DNA of 64,000 nucleotides from an uncultured bacterium. GTDB taxonomy: Bacteria > Patescibacteriota > Saccharimonadia > Saccharimonadales > Saccharimonadaceae. A program made the position numbers and the translations under genes. The notes under the pieces are model-generated. The model searched no databases. It was not told where the DNA came from and saw only the letters and a program-made list of their open reading frames with translations. Below, one piece after another: positions 2,883-44,476 of the stretch. Each line of letters begins with the position of its first letter. Position 1 is the first letter of the stretch. The stretch spans positions 92 to 64,091 of the forward strand of contig CACWJA010000003.1 in the NCBI GenBank assembly GCA_902761145.1, read 5' to 3'.

Positions 2883-3299
2883 ATTGTATTGCCTCCTAGT
2901 TATATGGTTAGATTGATTATTATATAAACGATATATAGATGAATATTGTTGTTCTATTTATAATTCGTTGCATCGAGGAACATTAAGCACAAACTTGGCT
3001 TTAGCGAGTTTGTGCGCCGGAGGGGCGAAGTGATGTGATAATATATCTACTTATCACATCACGTAGCTTCCGAGATGTAATGAATTATAAATATCACTTA
3101 TATATGGTCTCTATATATACTTATGTTTATATTGTACCCCCCCGATGGAAAGTCAAGGGGGTTTGCGGCTAGATATTGTTATTAATGCAATAATAATTCT
3201 ATGGTAAGACAACTAAAATAATACTTTTGGGACCGTACCTGAAAAAACGTGGAAGGTAGAGAGCGAAGCTCGCCTGTACGAACACTGTAGGAGTCGAGG

Positions 3300-3323
3300 A
3301 TATAAAAAGCTAGCTTTTTATAT
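3300..3323. terminator. Perfect 24-bp palindrome (ATATAAAAAGCT/AGCTTTTTATAT) overlapping the stop codon of 3318..4268; terminator-like hairpin
   Basis: 12-bp perfect stem with A/T runs, at the 3' end of a minus-strand gene. Confidence 0.4.
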
Positions 3324-4268
3324 CGAGTTCGCCTCTTTATCCTTGGATTTCCGCACCTTTTTTATTATTATAGTAACAAACCATACCAACAGTAGCGCTA
3401 TCAAGAATATCACTATAAATAGCAGCCAGAGTGGGCATATTACTATTATTTTTTCATTTACAGAGGTTTCACCAAATATAGTCACTGTTTGCTTTGCCCG
3501 GAATATTCCTACCACTGGCACATCTTCCCAGGTATTGAAAAAATATCTAGTAGTATCTGGTAGCACCAGTTTATCATTATCTTCACTTTCTTCATTAGTA
3601 TATATTTCTTCGTCCGAAAAAAGCGGCCACACTTGCAACACACTCTTAGCGTCTGTGTGTACATTACCAGTGTTTTTTACCCCCGCGCTTGCCACAAAAG
3701 GCGCACTCATCACGAATGTTGGCATATTATTTTCAAATACCTCGCCATATTCACGCGTCTGCCCTGCTACATCCGCCACCACCACCGACGCTACCGCACT
3801 AATGCCAGATATTTGTACACCATTATTATTTGCGCTATCAAAGCTAGTTACGTCTTGTGCCACTATTGCCGCATATTGTCCTCCAGCAGGCACATCCTTT
3901 GGTACCTTTACAGTGAAGCCAATTTCCATATTATCATTTGGTTTTAATGTGCCCTCAGTTTTATCCAAAGTAATCCAATCCACTATCTGCGTATATGTAC
4001 CCACTTTGTCAAATACCGGATCATAATCATCATTTGCCACGCTATATGGCGCTACATATAATTGAAACTTCAAATCATTCTCCGACATAGCCGGATTAGA
4101 CACTATCACGCTAGATCTATAAGTCTCCCCTGGTTTCAAAGAAATTCGTTGCGACGTCGGACCAAAAGTCAAGCTACTCTCTGTACCTTCCGCATGCACA
4201 TTACTTATGCATAGCGTAGCTACTACACTACATATTACTGTGCAAACAATTATTCTAATCCACTTCAT
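3318..4268 (-). CDS. Cell-surface protein resembling the DUF916/DUF3324 partner proteins of WxL loci (signal peptide, Ig-like body, C-terminal TM plus basic tail)
   Basis: Start moved to the ATG at 4268 (MKWIRIIVCTV.. signal peptide, GGAGG upstream); the longer track ORF would overlap the upstream gene. Body motif: VDWITLDKTEGTLKPNDNMEIGFTVKVPKDVPAGGQYAAIV. C-terminal LFIVIFLIALLLVWFV TM followed by KKVRKSKDK. Confidence 0.55.
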   Translation of the reverse strand: MKWIRIIVCTVICSVVATLCISNVHAEGTESSLTFGPTSQRISLKPGETYRSSVIVSNPAMSENDLKFQLYVAPYSVANDDYDPVFDKVGTYTQIVDWITLDKTEGTLKPNDNMEIGFTVKVPKDVPAGGQYAAIVAQDVTSFDSANNNGVQISGISAVASVVVADVAGQTREYGEVFENNMPTFVMSAPFVASAGVKNTGNVHTDAKSVLQVWPLFSDEEIYTNEESEDNDKLVLPDTTRYFFNTWEDVPVVGIFRAKQTVTIFGETSVNEKIIVICPLWLLFIVIFLIALLLVWFVTIIIKKVRKSKDKEANSI

Positions 4269-10953: not shown

Positions 10954-11028
10954 GCGAGTGTAGTACAGCGGTTAGTATGCAAGTTTTCCAAACTTGAGAT
11001 GAGGTTTCGACTACCTCCACTCGCACCA
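10954..11028 (+). tRNA. tRNA-Gly (anticodon TCC), CCA encoded
   Basis: Acceptor GCGAGTG/CACTCGC; anticodon stem CAAGT/ACTTG with loop TTTCCAA; T-arm GAGGT-TTCGACT-ACCTC. Confidence 0.9.
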
Positions 11029-11070: not shown

Positions 11071-11115
11071 ACTTGAAGTGAGGCCGAGGTAGTTTATCTA
11101 CCTCCACTCGCGCCA
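11071..11115 (+). other. Degenerate second copy of the tRNA-Gly 3' half (minihelix-like), sitting between two terminator hairpins
   Basis: ACTTGAAGTGAGGCCGAGGTAGTTTATCTACCTCCACTCGCGCCA compared with ACTTGAGATGAGGTTTCGACTACCTCCACTCGCACCA in the tRNA. Hairpins at 11043..11058 and 11126..11150. Confidence 0.7.
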
Positions 11116-11247
11116 ACACACAAAGAAATAGGCCAAAGGCTTATTTTTTTATTTCCATCCTCCTCAATGCATGTTCGATATATGATATAATAGCAACAGA
11201 GCATAAACACTATCAGCCTCATACTAAATAACAATTAAAGGGAAACC

Positions 11248-15109: not shown

Positions 15110-15185
15110 GGCTCCGTAGCTCAATGGATAGAGCAATTCCGTCCTAAGGAAAAGGTTGTGCGTTCGACTCGCACCGGAGTCACCA
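15110..15185 (+). tRNA. tRNA-Arg (anticodon CCT), CCA encoded
   Basis: Acceptor GGCTCCG/CGGAGTC; D-arm GCTC-AATGGATA-GAGC; anticodon loop GTCCTAA; T-arm GTGCG-TTCGACT-CGCAC. Confidence 0.8.
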
Positions 15186-15233
15186 AGTATGAAAAGAAGT
15201 CCCTTTGGACTTATTTTCATACTTAAGATAATA

Positions 15234-15367
15234 TCCGATGCGGGGAGAACGCTAGTTCGCCTGCTGTAGGAGATGAGGTCAAATCTAGAATTTATTCTAG
15301 ATTTACCGAAACGACGCCCAACAGAAAGACTTCGCGCAGCGAAGACTTACTCGCACCGGAGTCACCA
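15234..15367 (+). ncRNA. Candidate structured element closed by a tRNA-Arg-derived acceptor/T-stem minihelix and ending in ..ACCA (unclassified)
   Basis: TCCGATGCG (15234..15242) pairs with CGCACCGGA (15352..15360). Internal hairpins at 15247..15258, 15261..15266/15319..15324, 15281..15304 and 15330..15344. Homologous to 40553..40684. Confidence 0.5.
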
Positions 15368-15512
15368 AGTATATAAAAGAGCCCCTTGGGGGCTGTATTT
15401 AATTCAAGATAGTATTCAGTAAGAGGAGAGCATTAACGCCAGAATCATCAAATATAGAATACAACCTTAGCACGGATTTATCATATTATCCAACATATGT
15501 TATACTATTCTT

Positions 15513-37187: not shown

Positions 37188-38327
37188 TTATTTACAGTTA
37201 TGTGCCTCAAAGTTATTCTCACAAGTGGCAACCTCTTTTTTTATCTCTTTAGCCATCAATGCATATATTCTCTGACTGCCAGTGTCTTCCTTTTCTAGTC
37301 TTACTTCCACTCTGCGATATAAGTCATTAGCTCTCCCAGTAGAGTCTATCACCACCTGCATATCCAGCCTCATCCTACTATCTTCGCCCCCAGATTCTTC
37401 ACTTTCCACAGTACAGTTATCAACATCACATAACTCCATTTTTACATCTATATTTCGATACGAGTCCGCCCCACCAATCTTAGACCACATTAGCATAAAA
37501 GTATCATCATTTCGAGCCCCGTCAACAGGGTCCGGTAATACTATAACCGCCGAGCACTGCGGCTCAGACCCGCCATCACATTTTACTTTAATTGGAGCAT
37601 TTTGTACTGTCTTATCATTCGATTTCAAAAACGCATCTTTATTTATGATGTCGCCGCTCTCACCACTAGTAGGCTCCAAAAACACCGTACCGCGATTCGT
37701 TGTTTCCCCCTTAGTCATATCAAAACTATCCATAGTGAAAGTATAGCCCCCAGTTTGTAATAATCCCACCTCTAAAGTAGGTAGATCCTCCACGTCCCCC
37801 ACTGTTTCCCCCTCTACTCCCCAGCTCATCTTCACTGCCTTTACATCACTCGCTTGTTTTCCGTCAGCTAACTTTACTTTTACAACTCTCGTAGGATTTT
37901 CATTGTTAAGAGAGCTTAGATAATCATAACTACCTAAATCTATCTTGGTGCAAGTATACGCTTGATCCATATCATTCCCGGAACCCTCTTGTATTTTTAT
38001 CCCAGATCCATCTTCACTATCTACCCTCCCTAAATTCGCCGCAAAAGAGTTACATTCGCCATCACCCAAATGCGTACTCTCACAATCTGATCTATTACTT
38101 TTCACACAATTCTTATAGTTATAATACGCCAGCCTTGCATCCTCTACCCCAGCCACTGCAGCATCATAAGCAGATTGAGACAAATCATCATTAGATGTCC
38201 TGCTGATCTCAGCTATCATTATTGCCGCAAAACTAGTAGCTATTATTACTAACACCAAAGTAGCTATAGCTACCATGTAAAAAGATGCTGCCCCCTGTTT
38301 AAATCTTCTATCCCTTTGTTGCTTCAT
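37188..38327 (-). CDS. PilX-like pilus minor component (N-terminal hydrophobic helix, no canonical G/F cleavage motif)
   Basis: KQGAASFYMVAIATLVLVIIATSFAAIMIAEI. ATGA overlap with the upstream minor pilin gene. Confidence 0.55.
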   Translation of the reverse strand: MKQQRDRRFKQGAASFYMVAIATLVLVIIATSFAAIMIAEISRTSNDDLSQSAYDAAVAGVEDARLAYYNYKNCVKSNRSDCESTHLGDGECNSFAANLGRVDSEDGSGIKIQEGSGNDMDQAYTCTKIDLGSYDYLSSLNNENPTRVVKVKLADGKQASDVKAVKMSWGVEGETVGDVEDLPTLEVGLLQTGGYTFTMDSFDMTKGETTNRGTVFLEPTSGESGDIINKDAFLKSNDKTVQNAPIKVKCDGGSEPQCSAVIVLPDPVDGARNDDTFMLMWSKIGGADSYRNIDVKMELCDVDNCTVESEESGGEDSRMRLDMQVVIDSTGRANDLYRRVEVRLEKEDTGSQRIYALMAKEIKKEVATCENNFEAHNCK

Positions 38328-39127
38328 TTCTTCATCCCTCCTGCCTGCGCGGCAAAATTAAATTTATTTATAGCACAATAATTAAAATTACTATTATCCC
38401 CCTCTGGCGGAGTACAGTAATCCCCTTCAGCCATTATATTCACGCCGCCACCACGTGTCCCCAGCACAAAAGATATCGAATAAAACATCGTCTTTATAGC
38501 ATCACTCTCAGCTGGCTTCGGTACATATAGATCATATATGGCCAGTCTACTATCACTAGGTATTAACTCCTCATATTCCGTCACACCAAAATTAATATCA
38601 TCACCAGGATGTTCTTTTACCATTTTCTTATATTTATTACATATCTGCCTATCTTCATCCTTGATTTTGGCTAACCAATACCCTTCCCCAACGTCATCGT
38701 TAATTTTTACACCAATTTCATGGTCACCCCCATCCAGATAGCCCGTTCTCCATAGATAGCTATATTTCCCAGTACAAAACCCGCCATATAGCGGTACATC
38801 ATATTGCACCGAAGGTACTGGTATTCTACTAGTATTACGCCCATCATGATTATTCTTCTGCACAAAATACATACAACTAGGATCGTCAACGTTTTCCCCT
38901 GCGCATCCAGCATCCAACTTCACTGGCGACCCCTGCACCACAGTCCGCATATCATCTACTAGGTCCATCCCTACGTCGTTTATTTTATTAAGCGTCAGCC
39001 CCCTCTGATACGCTAGCACAGTATTATTAATTATCAGTACCGCTGTAAGCGATAATATACCAATAAACACTAGCGACAAAGATAGCTCCACCAGTGTAAA
39101 TCCCTTTTTGTTCACCGCACCTTTCAT
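38324..39127 (-). CDS. Type IV minor pilin
   Basis: MKGAVNKKG/FTLVELSLSLVFIGILSL prepilin motif. Confidence 0.75.
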   Translation of the reverse strand: MKGAVNKKGFTLVELSLSLVFIGILSLTAVLIINNTVLAYQRGLTLNKINDVGMDLVDDMRTVVQGSPVKLDAGCAGENVDDPSCMYFVQKNNHDGRNTSRIPVPSVQYDVPLYGGFCTGKYSYLWRTGYLDGGDHEIGVKINDDVGEGYWLAKIKDEDRQICNKYKKMVKEHPGDDINFGVTEYEELIPSDSRLAIYDLYVPKPAESDAIKTMFYSISFVLGTRGGGVNIMAEGDYCTPPEGDNSNFNYCAINKFNFAAQAGGMKK

Positions 39128-39158
39128 ATCGTATATTATACCACAACCACTTTATTTA

Positions 39159-39896
39159 TTATTTGCATCCATTGCTTGCATCATCATCCGGCACCAGCAC
39201 CACCCCAGATACATTCCTAGCATTTGCCACTACTCTTACATCTTTACGAGGCCCATCGCCACCAACAGTTTCACCGTCAGGATTTACGCACAAATCAATC
39301 GCCTTTTCCTCAAATTCACCCTCAACTATCTCTTCTCCAAGCTTCCACCCACTTTCAACATGCTTATCTGTCACATAAGTATACACAGTACCAGTCTCTG
39401 GATGTCGTATTATCATAATCGCACCCTTAAATAAATCAAAACTGCCGTCATTTTTAAACTGTATCTTCGACCCCCACTTTGGTATATAAGACTCCGTTAG
39501 TCCAGCATCCACCAATCCGACACTTATATCCTCACGCTTCCCCACATGCGACCCAGCGGTAATAATTCGCCCCAAAGCCCCACCACCTACTCCTCCCCCC
39601 GTATCCTTGCCTATCACACTATAAGAAATCACTTTGTCATCATCGCCATTGTTGCCAAAAGTAATTATCCGCCCGTATATTACATCGTCACTACTACCAG
39701 CACCCTCACTCTGCACATTCAGTACCTGCGAATAATTATTCCTCAAAAAATCCGCAAAGCTCTGCACTGCATCATTATATCTCTGCTGATATATAGAATT
39801 CTGAGTCCCAGCCACTATGCCCACAAATATAAGCGAAGTTATCGCTAAGAAAAGCGATACTTCTACCAAGGTAAACCCACGCCTATGACTTATCAT
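39159..39896 (-). CDS. Type IV minor pilin
   Basis: Start at the ATG 39896: MISHRRG/FTLVEVSLFLAITSLIFVGIVAG. The longer track ORF would overlap the upstream gene. Confidence 0.75.
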   Translation of the reverse strand: MISHRRGFTLVEVSLFLAITSLIFVGIVAGTQNSIYQQRYNDAVQSFADFLRNNYSQVLNVQSEGAGSSDDVIYGRIITFGNNGDDDKVISYSVIGKDTGGGVGGGALGRIITAGSHVGKREDISVGLVDAGLTESYIPKWGSKIQFKNDGSFDLFKGAIMIIRHPETGTVYTYVTDKHVESGWKLGEEIVEGEFEEKAIDLCVNPDGETVGGDGPRKDVRVVANARNVSGVVLVPDDDASNGCK

Positions 39897-39928
39897 GTCT
39901 CCATTATAACATAAGCATTCTTTTTTTG

Positions 39929-40354
39929 TTAGTGAGTCAGGAATAAATACATCATCCATTTTTCAAAATTCGAATACTCTTTCCGTACTGTCTCGCTAGG
40001 AGTAATTTTATGCTTTCCTTTGGCCTCATCAGAATTTTCCGGCAGCACCACCATATGTTCTCCAGGCCACTGCTTATCCAAATATTTACGCGCCATTATT
40101 TCCTGATACTCACTTGTAGACTGATATTCATTCTCCAACTCCGCCGCCTCTACCTCAGTTTTTACCAACTCCAAATCCTTTTGCTCGGTCATTAGTCTTT
40201 CTGACAGCTCCCAGTTTCTAGACATTGCCACTATAGACTGATATGTCCACACTAGGCACATGATAATAGCCAGCATCAATACGATATTCTCTATCGTAAA
40301 AAAATCATGCTTCATCCTAAATTTCGTTCGCCGTACACTGTCTTTCACGCTCAT
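39929..40354 (-). CDS. FtsB/DivIC-like septum-formation-initiator family protein
   Basis: TM (IVLMLAIIMCLVWTY), then a coiled coil (LMTEQKDLELVKTEVEAAELENE), then EYQEIMARKYLDKQWPGEHMVVLPE, which matches the family C-terminal motif. Start uncertain (40354 or 40372). Confidence 0.55.
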   Translation of the reverse strand: MSVKDSVRRTKFRMKHDFFTIENIVLMLAIIMCLVWTYQSIVAMSRNWELSERLMTEQKDLELVKTEVEAAELENEYQSTSEYQEIMARKYLDKQWPGEHMVVLPENSDEAKGKHKITPSETVRKEYSNFEKWMMYLFLTH

Positions 40355-40409
40355 GCATATATTATAATACATCGCCCACACAACATCTAGTGCCAAAATC
40401 CCAATAGTA

Positions 40410-40418
40410 TGATATAAT
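40410..40418 (+). promoter_or_regulatory. Extended -10 promoter element (TGaTATAAT) for tRNA-Ile
   Basis: TGATATAAT lies 11 nt upstream of the tRNA 5' end. Confidence 0.45.
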
Positions 40419-40429
40419 GTATTCACCAA

Positions 40430-40506
40430 GGGGGTATAGCTCAGTTGGTCAGAGCATGCGTCTTATACACGCAGTGTCCTTGGTTCGAGTCCAAGTACCC
40501 CCACCA
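40430..40506 (+). tRNA. tRNA-Ile (anticodon TAT, reads AUA), CCA encoded
   Basis: Acceptor GGGGGTA/TACCCCC; anticodon stem TGCGT/ACGCA with loop CTTATAC; T-arm CTTGG-TTCGAGT-CCAAG. Confidence 0.85.
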
Positions 40507-40552
40507 TCGCAATGGAAATGAGGCTGTAAGCCTTATTTTTGTTGCGATAATT

Positions 40553-40684
40553 GGGCACTTGGATAAGAACAAGGTTCGCCCAGCGTAGGAGGCGAATATG
40601 AATCTAAAATTTATTCTAGATTCATTGAGGCGACGCCCGCTGGATTGCTTGCCTATGGCAAGCAAAGTCCAAGTACCCCCACCA
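40553..40684 (+). ncRNA. Candidate structured element closed by a tRNA-Ile-derived acceptor/T-stem minihelix and ending in ..ACCA (same family as 15234..15367)
   Basis: GGGCACTTGG (40553..40562) pairs with CCAAGTACCC (40669..40678). Hairpins at 40567..40577, 40580..40585/40638..40643, 40598..40625 and 40645..40665. 56-bp direct repeat at 40488..40543 and 40666..40721. Confidence 0.5.
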
Positions 40685-40771
40685 TCGCAATGGAAATGAG
40701 GCTGTAAGCCTTATTTTTGTTTTCCAGCGCCAAATGCCTCACCAATAATAAAAATCACCCACTGGTTTGTC

Positions 40772-41578
40772 CTACACTATGCTCGTCAATACATCCGCCA
40801 GCGTCGTAACGATCACCCACGCTGCCACCATAAAAGGCCCCAAATATATACGCCTCTTGCCTGTTTTCTTTAGCACTGGCACAATCGCTATGCAGGCCAG
40901 TACATTTGTTAAACATAACGTTACTAACCCTAGCCATGGGCTCATCATTGTTAGCCCCACAGCAACACCAAGTAGCCAATCACCATCCCCTACCCATCGC
41001 CCCCTAGATGCTGCATACAACACAAAGTATAGCCCCCCAAGCACTGCCACAGCACCTACCGGCCCCCAAATATTCCGATCAATCGAGAAAGGAACTTCGC
41101 CAATCAACATCCACTCTTTTAAAACTAGCACGATCACACCACACACTATAGCAATGATTAACCCCACCACTGGCAATTCTCCATATAGCCCATCATATAT
41201 TGCGAGCCCTCCTAGTATCACCGCCAGCACTATTGTAGCCAAAAACACCCCCCATTTTAGTGGCATAGCTATGGCTATATTTATAGTAGACGCCAGCATC
41301 GCGAACGCACATCCCATTCCTAGCTCACTTATTAGCTCTGCTAAGCCTATCTTTTTTCCACATTTGCGACATCTACCCCCAAGCATCAACCATGATAATA
41401 CCGGTATATTATCATACCATTTTAACTGATACCCACATTTCATACATACAGATCTCGCACCGAGATTCTTTTTTTTCTTCGTACTAGTTCTTAAATGCAT
41501 CCGTCTCGCCTGACAACATAAGAAAGACCCCATACAGCTGCCCACCACAAACATCGTTATCCACCACATTACATTCAT
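40772..41578 (-). CDS. pilD: Prepilin peptidase (A24 family)
   Basis: N-terminal Cys motifs CCQARR..CMKCGYQLKWYDNIPVLSWLMLGGRCRKCGKKIG, then a polytopic membrane domain. Confidence 0.85.
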   Translation of the reverse strand: MNVMWWITMFVVGSCMGSFLCCQARRMHLRTSTKKKKNLGARSVCMKCGYQLKWYDNIPVLSWLMLGGRCRKCGKKIGLAELISELGMGCAFAMLASTINIAIAMPLKWGVFLATIVLAVILGGLAIYDGLYGELPVVGLIIAIVCGVIVLVLKEWMLIGEVPFSIDRNIWGPVGAVAVLGGLYFVLYAASRGRWVGDGDWLLGVAVGLTMMSPWLGLVTLCLTNVLACIAIVPVLKKTGKRRIYLGPFMVAAWVIVTTLADVLTSIV

Positions 41579-41646
41579 ATACCGATTGTATCATACACTT
41601 GATTTCTCACACCAATGCTTTATAATATAACCATAAGGAGATTATT

Positions 41647-42234
41647 ATGCCTCACCACAAACATGGCTTTACTATTATAGAAGTATCATTAGTACTCGCT
41701 ATTGCTGGACTTATTCTTGTCATGGCTTTTATCACCCTTCCCGCCCTCCAGCGCCAGACCAGAGACAGCAAGCGCAAAGAAGACACCATGACATTCCTCC
41801 AAGCCCTCAAAAAATACCAGCAGAACAATCGTGGTAATTTACCTGCTTATTCTGACAATGAGAGCATATTAGACAGTTATTCAATATTACATCTAAGTGA
41901 GTATTCAGACGGCTATAGTACATGGGAAAATAACGATTATGACGAAACGCAAAACCGCTGGGTTGCTTTTTATAACCAATATCTCGGCAATGATTTCACC
42001 AACCCAGATGGCATTAAATACTCTTTTTTGATACAAAAAAACCCCGACGACGCCTGGTGGCCATATGAAGACATAGTAGCCTACGATGTTTCCGATTTTG
42101 AAAACCGGTATGCAGATTTTTACATCTTCCTCAAAGCTACTTGCCAGAACGGCGAACCAGCAGGAAGCAACAACTCTCGTAATTTAGCCATAGTTACCAT
42201 TCTAGAGTCTGGCACCTACTGCGCCAACCTATAG
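41647..42234 (+). CDS. Type IV pilin
   Basis: MPHHKHG/FTIIEVSLVLAIAGLILVMAFITLPALQRQTRDSKRK. AAGGAG SD. Confidence 0.8.
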   Translation: MPHHKHGFTIIEVSLVLAIAGLILVMAFITLPALQRQTRDSKRKEDTMTFLQALKKYQQNNRGNLPAYSDNESILDSYSILHLSEYSDGYSTWENNDYDETQNRWVAFYNQYLGNDFTNPDGIKYSFLIQKNPDDAWWPYEDIVAYDVSDFENRYADFYIFLKATCQNGEPAGSNNSRNLAIVTILESGTYCANL

Positions 42235-42417
42235 CACAGTTTATACTGACCTATCTATCATTTCGTAGACTCTACACGTCATTCTCTATATCACACGATA
42301 ATTTATCCCAAAAAGCTATTGCTTTTTCAGAAAAAACTGATATCATAAAATCATAAAACACATTATATGGTTATGGCTACCGTATAATGCAAAATAATAA
42401 ATAAAGAAAGGACGAAC

Positions 42418-42948
42418 ATGTCTAACAAAAAACTATCAACCACTAAAAAAGGCTTCACCATCATCGAAGTCGTGCTCGTGCTAGCTATTGCCGGCCTTAT
42501 CTTCTTGATGGTATTCGTGGCCCTGCCAGCCCTCCAACGTAACCAACGCGACACCCAACGCCGCCAAGATTACGCTGATGCAGCAGCAGCTATAATCGGC
42601 TACGCCTCCAATAACGGTGGGAAACTACCAACACTCACCAATAGCACCGCATATCCTCAATTTGCAGCAAATAAAATCATAAACACTACTGGCAAGGACC
42701 CATCGAACGTCAACTATTCATTGATAGTCTGTTCCGGTACAGCGGCTGGTCCTAAAGGAACCTGTTCGGTTAACGGTGCAGCAGCAGCGAGCAACACAAA
42801 TATCACTGCGCCTGGTTCTGGACAAGTTTATGTCGTAGTCAAAGGAAAATGCGATAATGGCGTACTCAAAGTAGGTACCTCCGATAAAGAATTTGCAGTG
42901 TATGGCTACATGGAAGGCGCAACGTATTGCAATAACTACAACATATAA
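42418..42948 (+). CDS. Type IV pilin (probable major pilin)
   Basis: MSNKKLSTTKKG/FTIIEVVLVLAIAGLIFLMVFVALPALQRNQRDTQRR. Two C-terminal Cys pairs. A strong terminator follows. Confidence 0.8.
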   Translation: MSNKKLSTTKKGFTIIEVVLVLAIAGLIFLMVFVALPALQRNQRDTQRRQDYADAAAAIIGYASNNGGKLPTLTNSTAYPQFAANKIINTTGKDPSNVNYSLIVCSGTAAGPKGTCSVNGAAAASNTNITAPGSGQVYVVVKGKCDNGVLKVGTSDKEFAVYGYMEGATYCNNYNI

Positions 42949-42963
42949 GCTTTGGTTTATACC

Positions 42964-42994
42964 AAAAATCCACCAGTTCAACTGGTGGATTTTT
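42964..42994 (+). terminator. Rho-independent terminator after the pilin gene
   Basis: AAAAATCCACCAGT-TCAA-CTGGTGGATTTTT. Confidence 0.85.
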
Positions 42995-43270
42995 CAAGCA
43001 AACAAAACTATCCACTTTCGGCATAAAGAATTAAAACGTAATCTATAGTCTACCAATTGCTTTATTATTCCTTATCTCCATAAATGTTTGCATCTAAAAC
43101 ACCCAGCACTCCTAGCCCATTTCCCTTTAGCTAATTCTACGCATTTCCTTCATCCCTGGAGCGTGTTCTTCTACAATATCCACACGATGGCTTCTACGGC
43201 ACATGCATAGTATACTCAAAAAATCATTTCATATTGATCAACTAGCCAGTACGATGCAAATAGTTGTCTA

Positions 43271-44476
43271 TTAACCGCCCACGTTACTCACTAACGAATA
43301 TATCGGTAGCAGCGTACCCGCTATCACTACACCAATGAGCCCTGCCATTATCACCATCAGTATAGGCTCTACCATAGTGGAAATATTATTAATCTGTGTA
43401 TCCAGCTCATTCTCGTATACCTGTGCAGCCTTACCAAGCATCTCATCTATTTTACCAGACTCCTCACCTATAGATGCCATCTGTGGCACTAGTGGTAGCA
43501 TATATTCTCGGTCCTTTAGCGCTCCAGACAGTGCCTTACCGCCCTTGATAGGCTCTAGTACTTTACGATATTCCTCCTCTACTACCACATTATTGGTAGC
43601 GTCTATCGCTATAGCCACCGAGTCTAGCATTGGCACCCCAGTCGCCAGCATCATTTCTGCCGTCCGCGCAAATCTAGACACGTACAGCTTACGAAACAGC
43701 CCACCAAATATCGGCACATGTATTTTTATGCTATCCATTACCTTGCGCCCCACTGGAGTTCTCTTCACTGCATAGACACATCCACCCACTACACCCACTA
43801 GTATTATTAATACCAGCCACCAAAAGTTTCCAAAAAAATCTGACACATCCACCAATACCTGCGTAATCCCTGGCACAGTTTCCCCCATATCATCATATAG
43901 TTGCCTCACCTGTGGCACCACCGACGTCATCATAAAAGCAAGTACACCTAGTACCACTACTAATATTATCCCTGGATACACCATCGCTCCACGAATCTTC
44001 GATAGCATCGCTGCATCCTTCTCTTCCTGCTCCGCCAGTCTCTTGAGTGCCAAATCAAGCGTACCAGATGCCTCACCCGCCTTTATCAGTGCCAAATACA
44101 CACCGTTGAATACCTCCGGATGCAAAGCAAATGATTCATGTAAACTCTTACCAGATTCCACATTTATCAATATTTCCTCAGTAATTTTTTTCATGCCACG
44201 CCCTTGCGTTTGCTCTATCACGGTACGAAGCGACGTCGCTAGCGGCAACCCAGCACCGATCAATGTGGCAAGTTGCCTTGTAAATGTAATCCTATCTTTA
44301 TTTGTTACGCGATCAGTGCTTCCTAAAAGCCCAGTGCCCTCTTCAGTCAAAGATTGAGGGATGTATCCCTGCTCTATCAACAGATGCCCAGCTGTGCGTT
44401 CATCCTCAGCCTGAATATCACCCTTTACCACCTTGCCGGTAGACTTATCTTTAGCACGATATTTAAACCGCCGCAT
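43271..44476 (-). CDS. pilC: Type IV pilus platform protein (GspF/PilC family)
   Basis: 401 aa with two T2SSF repeats (FTRQLATLIGAGLPL.., FARTAEMMLATGVPML..) and three TM regions. Confidence 0.85.
   Translation of the reverse strand: MRRFKYRAKDKSTGKVVKGDIQAEDERTAGHLLIEQGYIPQSLTEEGTGLLGSTDRVTNKDRITFTRQLATLIGAGLPLATSLRTVIEQTQGRGMKKITEEILINVESGKSLHESFALHPEVFNGVYLALIKAGEASGTLDLALKRLAEQEEKDAAMLSKIRGAMVYPGIILVVVLGVLAFMMTSVVPQVRQLYDDMGETVPGITQVLVDVSDFFGNFWWLVLIILVGVVGGCVYAVKRTPVGRKVMDSIKIHVPIFGGLFRKLYVSRFARTAEMMLATGVPMLDSVAIAIDATNNVVVEEEYRKVLEPIKGGKALSGALKDREYMLPLVPQMASIGEESGKIDEMLGKAAQVYENELDTQINNISTMVEPILMVIMAGLIGVVIAGTLLPIYSLVSNVGG

Follow-up and report, generated by a model that had tools for sequence, protein, structure and literature searches.

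A family of structured elements built like the Escherichia coli RtT unit stands behind tRNA genes of Saccharibacteria

Why does the 3' end of a tRNA gene recur, without a single change, 178 nucleotides (nt) downstream of its first occurrence? The question is raised by tRNA-Ile(UAU) of an uncultured Saccharimonadaceae bacterium (GenBank assembly GCA_902761145.1, contig CACWJA010000003.1), of which a stretch of 64,000 nt, here called the window, was analysed. The tRNA gene (40430-40506, plus strand like all features below unless stated otherwise; recognised by ARAGORN and with 70.7 bits by the Rfam tRNA model) contributes its end to a 56-nt direct repeat, AGTCCAAGTACCCCCACCATCGCAATGGAAATGAGGCTGTAAGCCTTATTTTTGTT, which a repeat search located at 40488-40543 and 40666-40721 with 100% identity. 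Repeat search and sequence together show that copy 1 comprises tRNA positions 58-76, from the T-loop to the CCA, the trailer and a terminator, T1 (stem 40521-40533 in the stem listing, T-run to 40543). Copy 2 repeats tRNA positions 58-76 at 40666-40684, where they provide the 3' strand of a closing stem, P0, and an NCCA tail, and continues into terminator T2 (stem 40699-40711, T-run to 40721). Between the copies lies an insert of 122 nt, for which a preliminary description had proposed a fold closed by the copied tRNA end. The finding is real, and this structural reading was right. The element is built like an RtT unit of E. coli but by score lies outside the Rfam family of RtT RNA (RF00391), and its central arm, P2-P3, is new. 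As the most likely account, to which we give an even chance, the element belongs to a clade-specific family of tRNA-derived, tRNA-linked small RNA genes that resemble RtT and share a conserved core not known before.

The perfect 56-bp repeat and the listed stems of the preliminary description were all recovered. Directly behind T1, a GATAAT hexamer preceded by TGC (40546-40551), read from the sequence, resembles an extended -10 box and may be a promoter of the element itself. The 5' strand of P0, GGGCACTTGGAT (40553-40564), has the same complementarity to both copies of the repeat; its segment GGGCACTTGG (40553-40562) pairs with CCAAGTACCC (40669-40678) at nine of ten positions, the tenth being a C.A, and AT/GT can lengthen the stem. 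P1 is the hairpin GAAC-AAG-GTTC (40567-40577), whereas P2 (40580-40585/40638-40643) encloses an internal loop that is invariant in the family (GTAGGAG, 40585-40591; GAGGCGACGCC, 40627-40637) together with the hairpin P3 (40598-40625), the 13-nt arms of which were 92% complementary in the repeat search. P4, TTGCTTGCC-TAT-GGCAAGCAA, fills 40645-40665. Minimum-energy folding of 40553-40686 recovered P0 to P4 at -53.3 kcal/mol, compared with -32.2 +/- 3.7 kcal/mol for shuffled sequences (z = -5.7). From the sequence, the P0 5' strand could alternatively reach back over the T1 hairpin and pair with copy 1 in the tRNA, and P0 5' strand, T1 and copy 1 together form a single long inverted repeat.

A paralogous element stands behind tRNA-Arg(CCU) (locus 15110-15394), and the core covariance model R1 scored it with 83.4 bits and the Ile copy (40580-40643 region) with 85.8 bits. 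Here the tRNA (15110-15185) and its terminator T1 (15185-15224) are followed by GATAAT (15230-15235), the P0 5' strand (15235-15244), the core (15247-15326), P4 (15327-15349), the copied tRNA positions 58-76 (15349-15367) and T2 (15380-15394), and the direct repeat extends over 15167-15208 and 15349-15390. The inserts are homologous and share the GATAAT box, GAAC..GTTCGCC, GTAGGAG, the P3 hairpin and CGACGCCC. The sequences of P0, P2 and P4 differ between them with pairing retained in both; the Ile insert folds like the copy at 15 kb, as had been proposed. A 22-mer of P3 occurs at these two places of the window only, where shuffled sequences lead one to expect 0.00 such matches.

Beyond the window, model R1 found about 38 full copies among the loci collected from Saccharibacteria (given below by their L numbers), and the members of the family are Candidatus Saccharibacteria, in the form of Nanosyncoccus-like metagenome-assembled genomes from the gut. 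A pattern scan of species-representative genomes returned 11 loci, all in Saccharibacteria from sheep or cattle gut, and a metagenome scan with P3 left free in the pattern returned 20 true loci and 2 chance matches. The listed homologues of a neighbouring SurA-like protein were all from relatives with at least 72% identity, and truly distant Saccharibacteria therefore lie outside the sample. At least 11 tRNA species carry the element, namely Arg-CCU, Arg-UCG, Ile-UAU, Tyr, Leu-GAG, Gly-UCC, Glu-UUC, Glu-CUC, Thr-CGU, Ala-GGC and Val-UAC, the copies behind Ala-GGC and Val-UAC being variants with GTTCGAA or GTTCGGA. At these 11 different tRNAs the core of about 105 nt has constant boundaries and the unit measures 160-182 nt; among the collected loci, 31 of 64 tRNAs are followed by another copy of their own 3' end.

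Strong covariation was seen in P2/P3, compared in 35 distinct cores, and in P0. In the arm formed by P2, P2b and P3, 93.7% of the alignment cells are paired and 21 of 24 pairs have changed on both sides; none of 500 shuffles reached any of these measures, pairing fell to 34-47% when the strands were slid by 1-3 columns, and RNAalifold supported the P2/P3 consensus. For P0, the 10 nt in front of the dinucleotide that precedes GAAC were compared with whichever ungapped register after P4 paired best; 85.4% of the cells are paired and nine of ten pairs are doubly changed (0/500 shuffles; 29-41% when slid), although the choice of the best register somewhat inflates the pairing. Shuffled arms reached 7.05 of 10 pairs compared with 8.5 observed. 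Among 30 distinct copies, 25 have a P4 hairpin with 6 bp or more, with unrelated sequences and pairing kept. Minimum-energy folds of the individual copies gave the same four-way junction of P0, P1, P2-P3 and P4. The unpaired blocks GTTCG, GTAG(G/A)AG and GA..C.ACGCC are invariant, as is GAAC, and these unpaired blocks persist among genomes in which the prepilin peptidase is just 55-68% identical. P3, on the other hand, has unrelated, covarying sequences in distant copies (for example GAAAGAAAGTGC..GCACTTCTCTTTC), and for this reason a conserved palindromic protein-binding site in P3 was rejected. The heptamer GCGAAGC was seen repeatedly in P4 loops (for example in L006, L009, L011-L013 and L018) and also in the E. 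coli RtT units (L048); GCGAAGC forms an unusually stable mini-hairpin in DNA.

The copied tRNA end has a sharp left edge. In 23 of 29 cases the stretch identical with the tRNA starts with position 58 or 59, and the repeat ends 0-5 nt past the CCA in 28 of 29, the Ile copy of the window with its 37 nt of trailer being the exception. The repeat proper therefore consists of the 3'-terminal 18-19 nt of the tRNA, and the inclusion of the terminator noted in the preliminary description holds for the Ile copy and is not a rule of the family. As a rule, the trailer and terminator of copy 1 show no relation to those of copy 2, and unrelated short inserts behind tRNAs have identical repeat boundaries. 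The P0 5' strand had been read as the 5' strand of the acceptor stem fused to that of the T-stem; its complementarity to the copied end was confirmed, but across the family it is the complement of tRNA positions of about 59-70, two of which are T-loop bases without a partner in the tRNA, and not a simple fusion. Its register varies slightly, and it frequently extends as far as the acceptor strand does. The closing stem does follow the identity of the neighbouring tRNA, its complementarity being kept while the sequence changes together with the tRNA: the 3' 19-mers of tRNA-Arg(CCU) are up to 6 nt apart between genomes, whereas a tRNA and its own copy differ by 0-1 nt in four of six cases, and in L009, where the copy has diverged from the tRNA, the P0 5' strand matches the diverged copy.

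Orthologous loci of relatives document a long residence of the element. It is present at the tRNA-Ile locus L004, where the peptidase is 63% identical, and at the tRNA-Arg locus L006; neither random intergenic sequence at orthologous sites nor loss of P0 complementarity in homologues, which would have spoken against the proposed fold, was found. Each core of the window is nearer to its orthologue (90% and 96%) than to the other core of the window, and in the family as a whole the cores group by tRNA site and not by genome, with groups for Arg-CCU, Ile, Gly-UCC, Tyr, Arg-UCG and Thr-CGU and one exception, the Leu core of L019, which is close to the Arg-CCU core of Nanosyncoccus. The loci are therefore old and have been retained at each tRNA, and the family is not a recently active repeat. 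Sites without the element exist as well. The His-Gly(UCC) site is empty in L001/L003, has a bare minihelix in the window and the full element in L021, L025, L031, L036 and L040; the Arg-CCU site contains a short insert in L046, a mini-variant with P0 and GAAC..GTTCG and without P2-P3 in L044, and nothing in L042, where the tRNA is inverted. L033 has retained the element but no longer has the tRNA. Arrays in tandem were seen in L032, L037 (three elements) and L041 (partial second copy); in L032 (83-1950) the 3' end of tRNA-Tyr recurs four times behind the tRNA, together with two complete elements and a single short hairpin insert. A 1.3-kb gene for a 277-amino-acid protein with an HExxH motif was observed between copies 3 and 4 of this array, so protein-coding cargo can sit within such an array. 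Several genomes additionally have a separate long-hairpin unit of about 75 nt (TTAAAAGCCGGCA ... TGCCGGCTTTTAA enclosing CTTGCTCGCTC..CACTTCGCAAGAAG) between the tRNA terminator and the element (L017, 653-770; L019, 6423-6540; L029; L041, 3985-4060).

The nearest known counterpart is the RtT unit of E. coli. At the tyrT locus of strain K-12, units with a period of 178 bp follow tyrT and tyrV, compared with 178 and 182 bp for the two elements of the window. Each E. coli unit consists, in this order, of GGGGAAGGAT, which is the complement of the copied end, GA, GAA(C/G)CTTCGAC.AAGGTTCG, GC-rich hairpins and AATCCTTCCCCCACCACCA, the last 19 nt of tRNA-Tyr, and it folds into a closed multi-branched structure with a 10-bp closing stem and the 8-nt tail CACCACCA. 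As in Saccharibacteria, a tRNA gene of the same orientation precedes the unit, and the final 19 nt of that tRNA (positions 58-76, CCA included) form the end of the unit; a complementary 5' strand pairs with this copy and closes the multi-branched fold, leaving an 8-nt tail, GA and a GAAC..GGTTCG hairpin follow the closing stem, the hairpin in front of the copy is rich in GC and has a GAA or GCA loop, and a dubious small basic open reading frame lies inside. The motif GAGAAS-N3-12-GGTTCG is present in four of four RtT units compared with 0.01 expected, and in the other collected loci it matches elements and one site within a tRNA-Val. In a permissive scan, RF00391 gave a weak full-length match in L036, extending exactly from the P0 5' strand to the CCA. 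The differences are equally clear. Sequence likeness is limited to short motifs, with no detectable homology beyond them; the P2-P3 arm with the invariant GUAGGAG/CGACGCC loop is peculiar to Saccharibacteria, as is the terminator between tRNA and element, whereas the tyrT units were reportedly shown by Rossi et al. in 1981 to be co-transcribed with the tRNA. In addition, Saccharibacteria have single units at 11 or more tRNA species, conserved across genera, and E. coli a local tandem array behind one tRNA. The tyrT repeats are said to go back to Egan and Landy in 1978, with further work by Rossi et al. in 1981 and by Bösl and Kersten in 1991. No Rfam family reached its threshold in the element, and models of ribozymes, riboswitches, transfer-messenger RNA (tmRNA), signal recognition particle RNA and RNase P gave no match. 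A literature search returned no relevant description for Saccharibacteria or of tRNA-linked minihelices.

If the element is a small RNA gene, as we consider about evenly balanced, a separate RNA of about 130 nt would be made on the tRNA strand, starting from the -10-like box just past the tRNA terminator or by read-through and ending at the terminator or at the T-run right after the copied tRNA end. A TAnnnT hexamer, read from the sequence, stands 5-9 nt before P0 in most copies, a GATAAT box precedes both copies of the window, and terminators or T-runs directly after the copied end on the plus strand are consistent with a plus-strand RNA, as are P3 loops, which read CUUG, CUCG or UUCG on the plus strand in about 15 copies, compared with one CAAG. 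The RNA would fold into the four-way junction that the covariation shows. Its P0, composed of the 5' strand and the copy of tRNA positions of about 59-72 with an NCCA-type tail, imitates the acceptor/T minihelix of the neighbouring tRNA, and the RNA may thereby obtain end formation and stability of the tRNA type. Acceptor/T-like helices with an NCCA tail on a body that is not a tRNA are also found in the tRNA-like domain of tmRNA, in viral tRNA-like structures and in MALAT1 mascRNA, where, as in the element, they plausibly serve end processing or stability; in the element, unlike these modules, the entire body replaces the T-loop, the helix is copied from the adjacent tRNA and the CCA is dispensable in old copies. 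The invariant internal loop (GUAGGAG/GAnnCGACGCC) on the P2-P3 arm may represent the functional surface and probably binds a protein or RNA common to all paralogues. Duplication or recombination at the 3' ends of tRNAs may have created and dispersed the family, which has since been kept at each tRNA site. The copied end and the P0 5' strand, which change together with the adjacent tRNA, may have been homogenised with it or selected to match it. With respect to origin, P1 with its GGTTCG resembles the 5' half of a T-arm. The P1 module GAGAAS..GGTTCG was also seen to resemble the stretch from the variable loop to the T-loop, within tRNA-Val in L041 (8241-8258) and in the E. coli tRNA-Tyr in L048. 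The motif match inside tRNA-Val suggests that P1 derived from a tRNA variable loop and the 5' half of a T-arm, and the resemblance hints at an origin of the entire element as a rearranged copy of a tRNA that received the core at T-loop position 57/58.

Several observations weigh against this reading. The RNA itself, its strand and its ends are deduced from sequence features, and a two-hexamer promoter scan called no promoter for the element, the -10-like hexamer standing alone in AT-rich sequence. G.U pairs are not favoured over A.C mismatches (17 versus 18 in the core and 26 versus 24 in P0), which one would not usually see in a helix under selection in a single RNA strand and is the main caveat; in folds of the whole element, G.U pairs even numbered 108 on the minus strand and 63 on the plus strand. 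Fold energies are nearly equal for the two strands (-56.3 kcal/mol for plus and -55.3 kcal/mol for minus). P0 does not uniformly end at position 72/73, and the CCA has been lost in L004, L035, L025, L031 and L006 with P0 and core retained; a strict tRNA-like 3' end is therefore dispensable, and the tRNA-like tail appears to be a trace of the origin, or an aid to end formation, rather than the functional centre. As for the relation to RtT, the match of RF00391 in L036 scored 15.8 bits and thus remained below the gathering threshold of 45 bits, and at E<=10 the model was absent from the Ile and Arg copies of the window, L030 and L041. Conversely, no score of model R1 in E. coli exceeded 5.7 bits, and an nhmmer profile found no match there either; common descent with RtT is therefore undemonstrated.

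The parity of G.U and A.C would be expected if the structure acted in DNA, with selection apparently on Watson-Crick pairing in both strands. The element could then be a small non-autonomous recombination or mobile element, in which hairpins of single-stranded or cruciform DNA and the tRNA-end repeat would be acted on by a recombinase, transposase or template-switching polymerase from another locus and the direct repeat would be an att-like insertion mark. This explanation, the main rival, which we hold to be possible but on the unlikely side, accounts for the sharp left edge of the repeat, the tandem arrays, the long inverted repeat of P0 5' strand, T1 and copy 1 and the site states ranging from empty through bare minihelix or short hairpin and mini-variant to full element, and the GCGAAGC loops of P4 would fit as stable DNA hairpins. 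The repeat families REP/BIME, ERIC, Correia and PATE are likewise short, hairpin-rich, multi-copy and intergenic and keep their pairing regardless of wobble, but the element differs from them in its strict linkage to tRNA 3' ends, its tRNA-specific repeat and its few copies per genome, which cluster by site. This clustering across genomes also contrasts with an active repeat, which would group by genome. Open reading frame lists and Pfam labels for the window and the other loci revealed no integrase, transposase, recombinase or reverse transcriptase adjoining any copy, and an insert of 122 nt is too short to encode one. With regard to marks of miniature inverted-repeat transposable elements or insertion sequences, P0 is an inverted repeat, but no short target-site duplication was found. 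Invariant unpaired blocks and plus-strand terminators suit an RNA better than a DNA substrate, and the absence of matches in three scans of viral contigs, on which a phage origin was rejected, also counts against a mobile element.

The idea that the P0 5' strand is a guide and that the 18-19-nt copy was templated from the mature tRNA, with RNA-dependent, sequence-programmable propagation of the family, appears improbable to us, whether it is conceived as synthesis primed or templated by the tRNA 3' end or as guide-directed insertion next to the T-arm. If true, it would explain how one core came to stand at eleven tRNAs with matching closing stems, and the E. coli RtT repeats would be a relic of the same process. 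Related to it is the notion that the units were made from RNA, a reverse transcriptase or template-switching polymerase having joined the 3'-terminal 18-19 nt of a mature tRNA to a core RNA. The 3'-terminal 18-19 nt of tRNAs are the segment bound by retroviral primer-binding sites, and 1-methyladenosine at position 58 (m1A58) stops reverse transcription, so the left and right edges of the repeat, the unrelated trailers and terminators of the two copies and the boundaries shared by unrelated short inserts would all be accommodated. Attractive as this notion is, we regard it as decidedly improbable. Since the CCA is gene-encoded here, the right edge does not separate an RNA from a DNA template, and the boundary could equally be explained by the required meeting point of P0 and P4. 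Moreover, part of the trailer is repeated too in the Ile copy of the window, in L016 and in E. coli, which means that DNA was duplicated, and no reverse transcriptase was seen in any locus, nor, by the lists mentioned above, a reverse transcriptase gene next to a copy as in retrons and other non-coding RNAs associated with such enzymes.

A direct repeat of the 3' part of a tRNA flanking an insert is a typical mark of integrative elements, and the copies could be the attR-proximal ends of decayed integrase-borne islands or prophages once inserted in tRNA genes. The att duplications of tyrosine integrases at tRNA genes likewise repeat the tRNA 3' end from the T-loop, leave the tRNA intact and accrete in tandem. 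We consider such remnants very improbable, because deletion remnants would not share precise ends, whereas the same core with the same boundaries is found at 11 tRNAs; the core shows covariation and invariant loops, and no integrase pseudogenes were found. Unlike att duplications, the copies are orthologous across species, have 122 nt of insert in the case of the window Ile copy and no integrase, and their closing inverted strand lies about 105 nt away. The inverted core sites expected at the junction of an attR are missing, which also counts against recombination in DNA; to the left of the junction stands the stem of P4 and not a T-stem-like core site, and a tyrosine-integrase attR was set aside for this reason. 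Hardly any credit, finally, is due to the reading of the insert as a gene for a small basic peptide (MNLKFILDSLRRRP...) starting from GGAGG-N5-ATG, like the 'protamine-like' tpr frame annotated within rttR in E. coli: the Ile copy of the window does have GGAG-N6-ATG and a 33-codon open reading frame, and L004 and L035 have 16 codons, but 32 of 35 copies lack a usable start 4-12 nt after GGAG or have a frame of at most 3 codons, L006 has ATA instead and an in-frame TAG upstream, the E. coli tpr frame spans a different part of the unit, and the K/R and E/D replacements that the preliminary description had pointed out are paired substitutions preserving P3, so that this reading was rejected with a conserved start and frame (at least 16 amino acids, start 4-12 nt after GGAG) in 3 of 35 copies only, all of the Ile type.

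Other relatives of the element in the window are reduced or uncertain. The bare minihelix at the His-Gly(UCC) site (11077-11116) stands 3' of tRNA-Gly(UCC) (10954-11028) and of the terminator of that tRNA; it consists of the two P0 arms and a 5-nt loop, TTTAT, without a core, ends with GCCA, folds with z = -6.3 and has its own terminator to about 11150, and its 3' arm is a copy of tRNA positions 59-72. Short forms resembling it were observed in other loci behind tRNAs for His, Arg-CCG, Gly-CCC, Ala-CGC and Tyr. At 3250-3362, model R1 found with 24.9 bits (E = 8e-5) a weak, uncertain relative of the core that is diverged or apparently permuted, with GTAGGAG, a hairpin and GAAC/GTTCGCC on the outside; it has no adjacent tRNA and folds no better than shuffled sequences. 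ARAGORN and the Rfam tRNA and tmRNA models recognised five tRNAs and no tmRNA in the whole window. Genes for an FtsB-like protein, a prepilin peptidase, the SurA-like protein and a Clp ATPase are neighbours of the elements, and the tRNA-Ile locus sits inside a type IV pilus cluster (37188-44476) with several prepilin-like open reading frames (GFTLVE or GFTIIE motifs), the prepilin peptidase and a PilC-like protein. Proteins encoded near the elements assign the window to Candidatus Saccharibacteria, close to 'Ca. Nanosyncoccus', and a look-up of the exact prepilin peptidase of the window returned no recorded protein. The minus strand of positions 1-458 contains the start of a 23S rRNA gene. The anticodon UAU of tRNA-Ile, which is uncommon among bacteria, is conserved in the clade (window, 40430-40506; L004, L024, L026 and L038).

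The tyrT repeats and RtT RNA of E. coli have been known since the late 1970s, have no accepted function and are usually treated as a local oddity, and the mode of action of rttR was still called unknown in a preprint of 2024 (10.1101/2024.07.17.603846). The same architecture recurs in the very distant, genome-reduced Saccharibacteria, at many tRNA genes, at orthologous sites across genera, with strong covariation and an invariant loop. Retention in genomes of roughly 1 Mb argues that tRNA-linked elements of the RtT build do something. The common variation of tRNA, copy and anti-copy raises the question of mechanism, namely whether the three are kept together by a 19-nt tract of gene conversion or because the tRNA itself takes part in a functional pairing. 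For the annotation of candidate-phyla genomes, such loci can mislead predictors of tRNAs, islands and att sites. With about 40 diverse sequences, a covariance model and the predictions of a discrete RNA, of ends at P0 and of a partner on the GUAGGAG/CGACGCC loop, the family makes the question of what RtT elements do a testable one.

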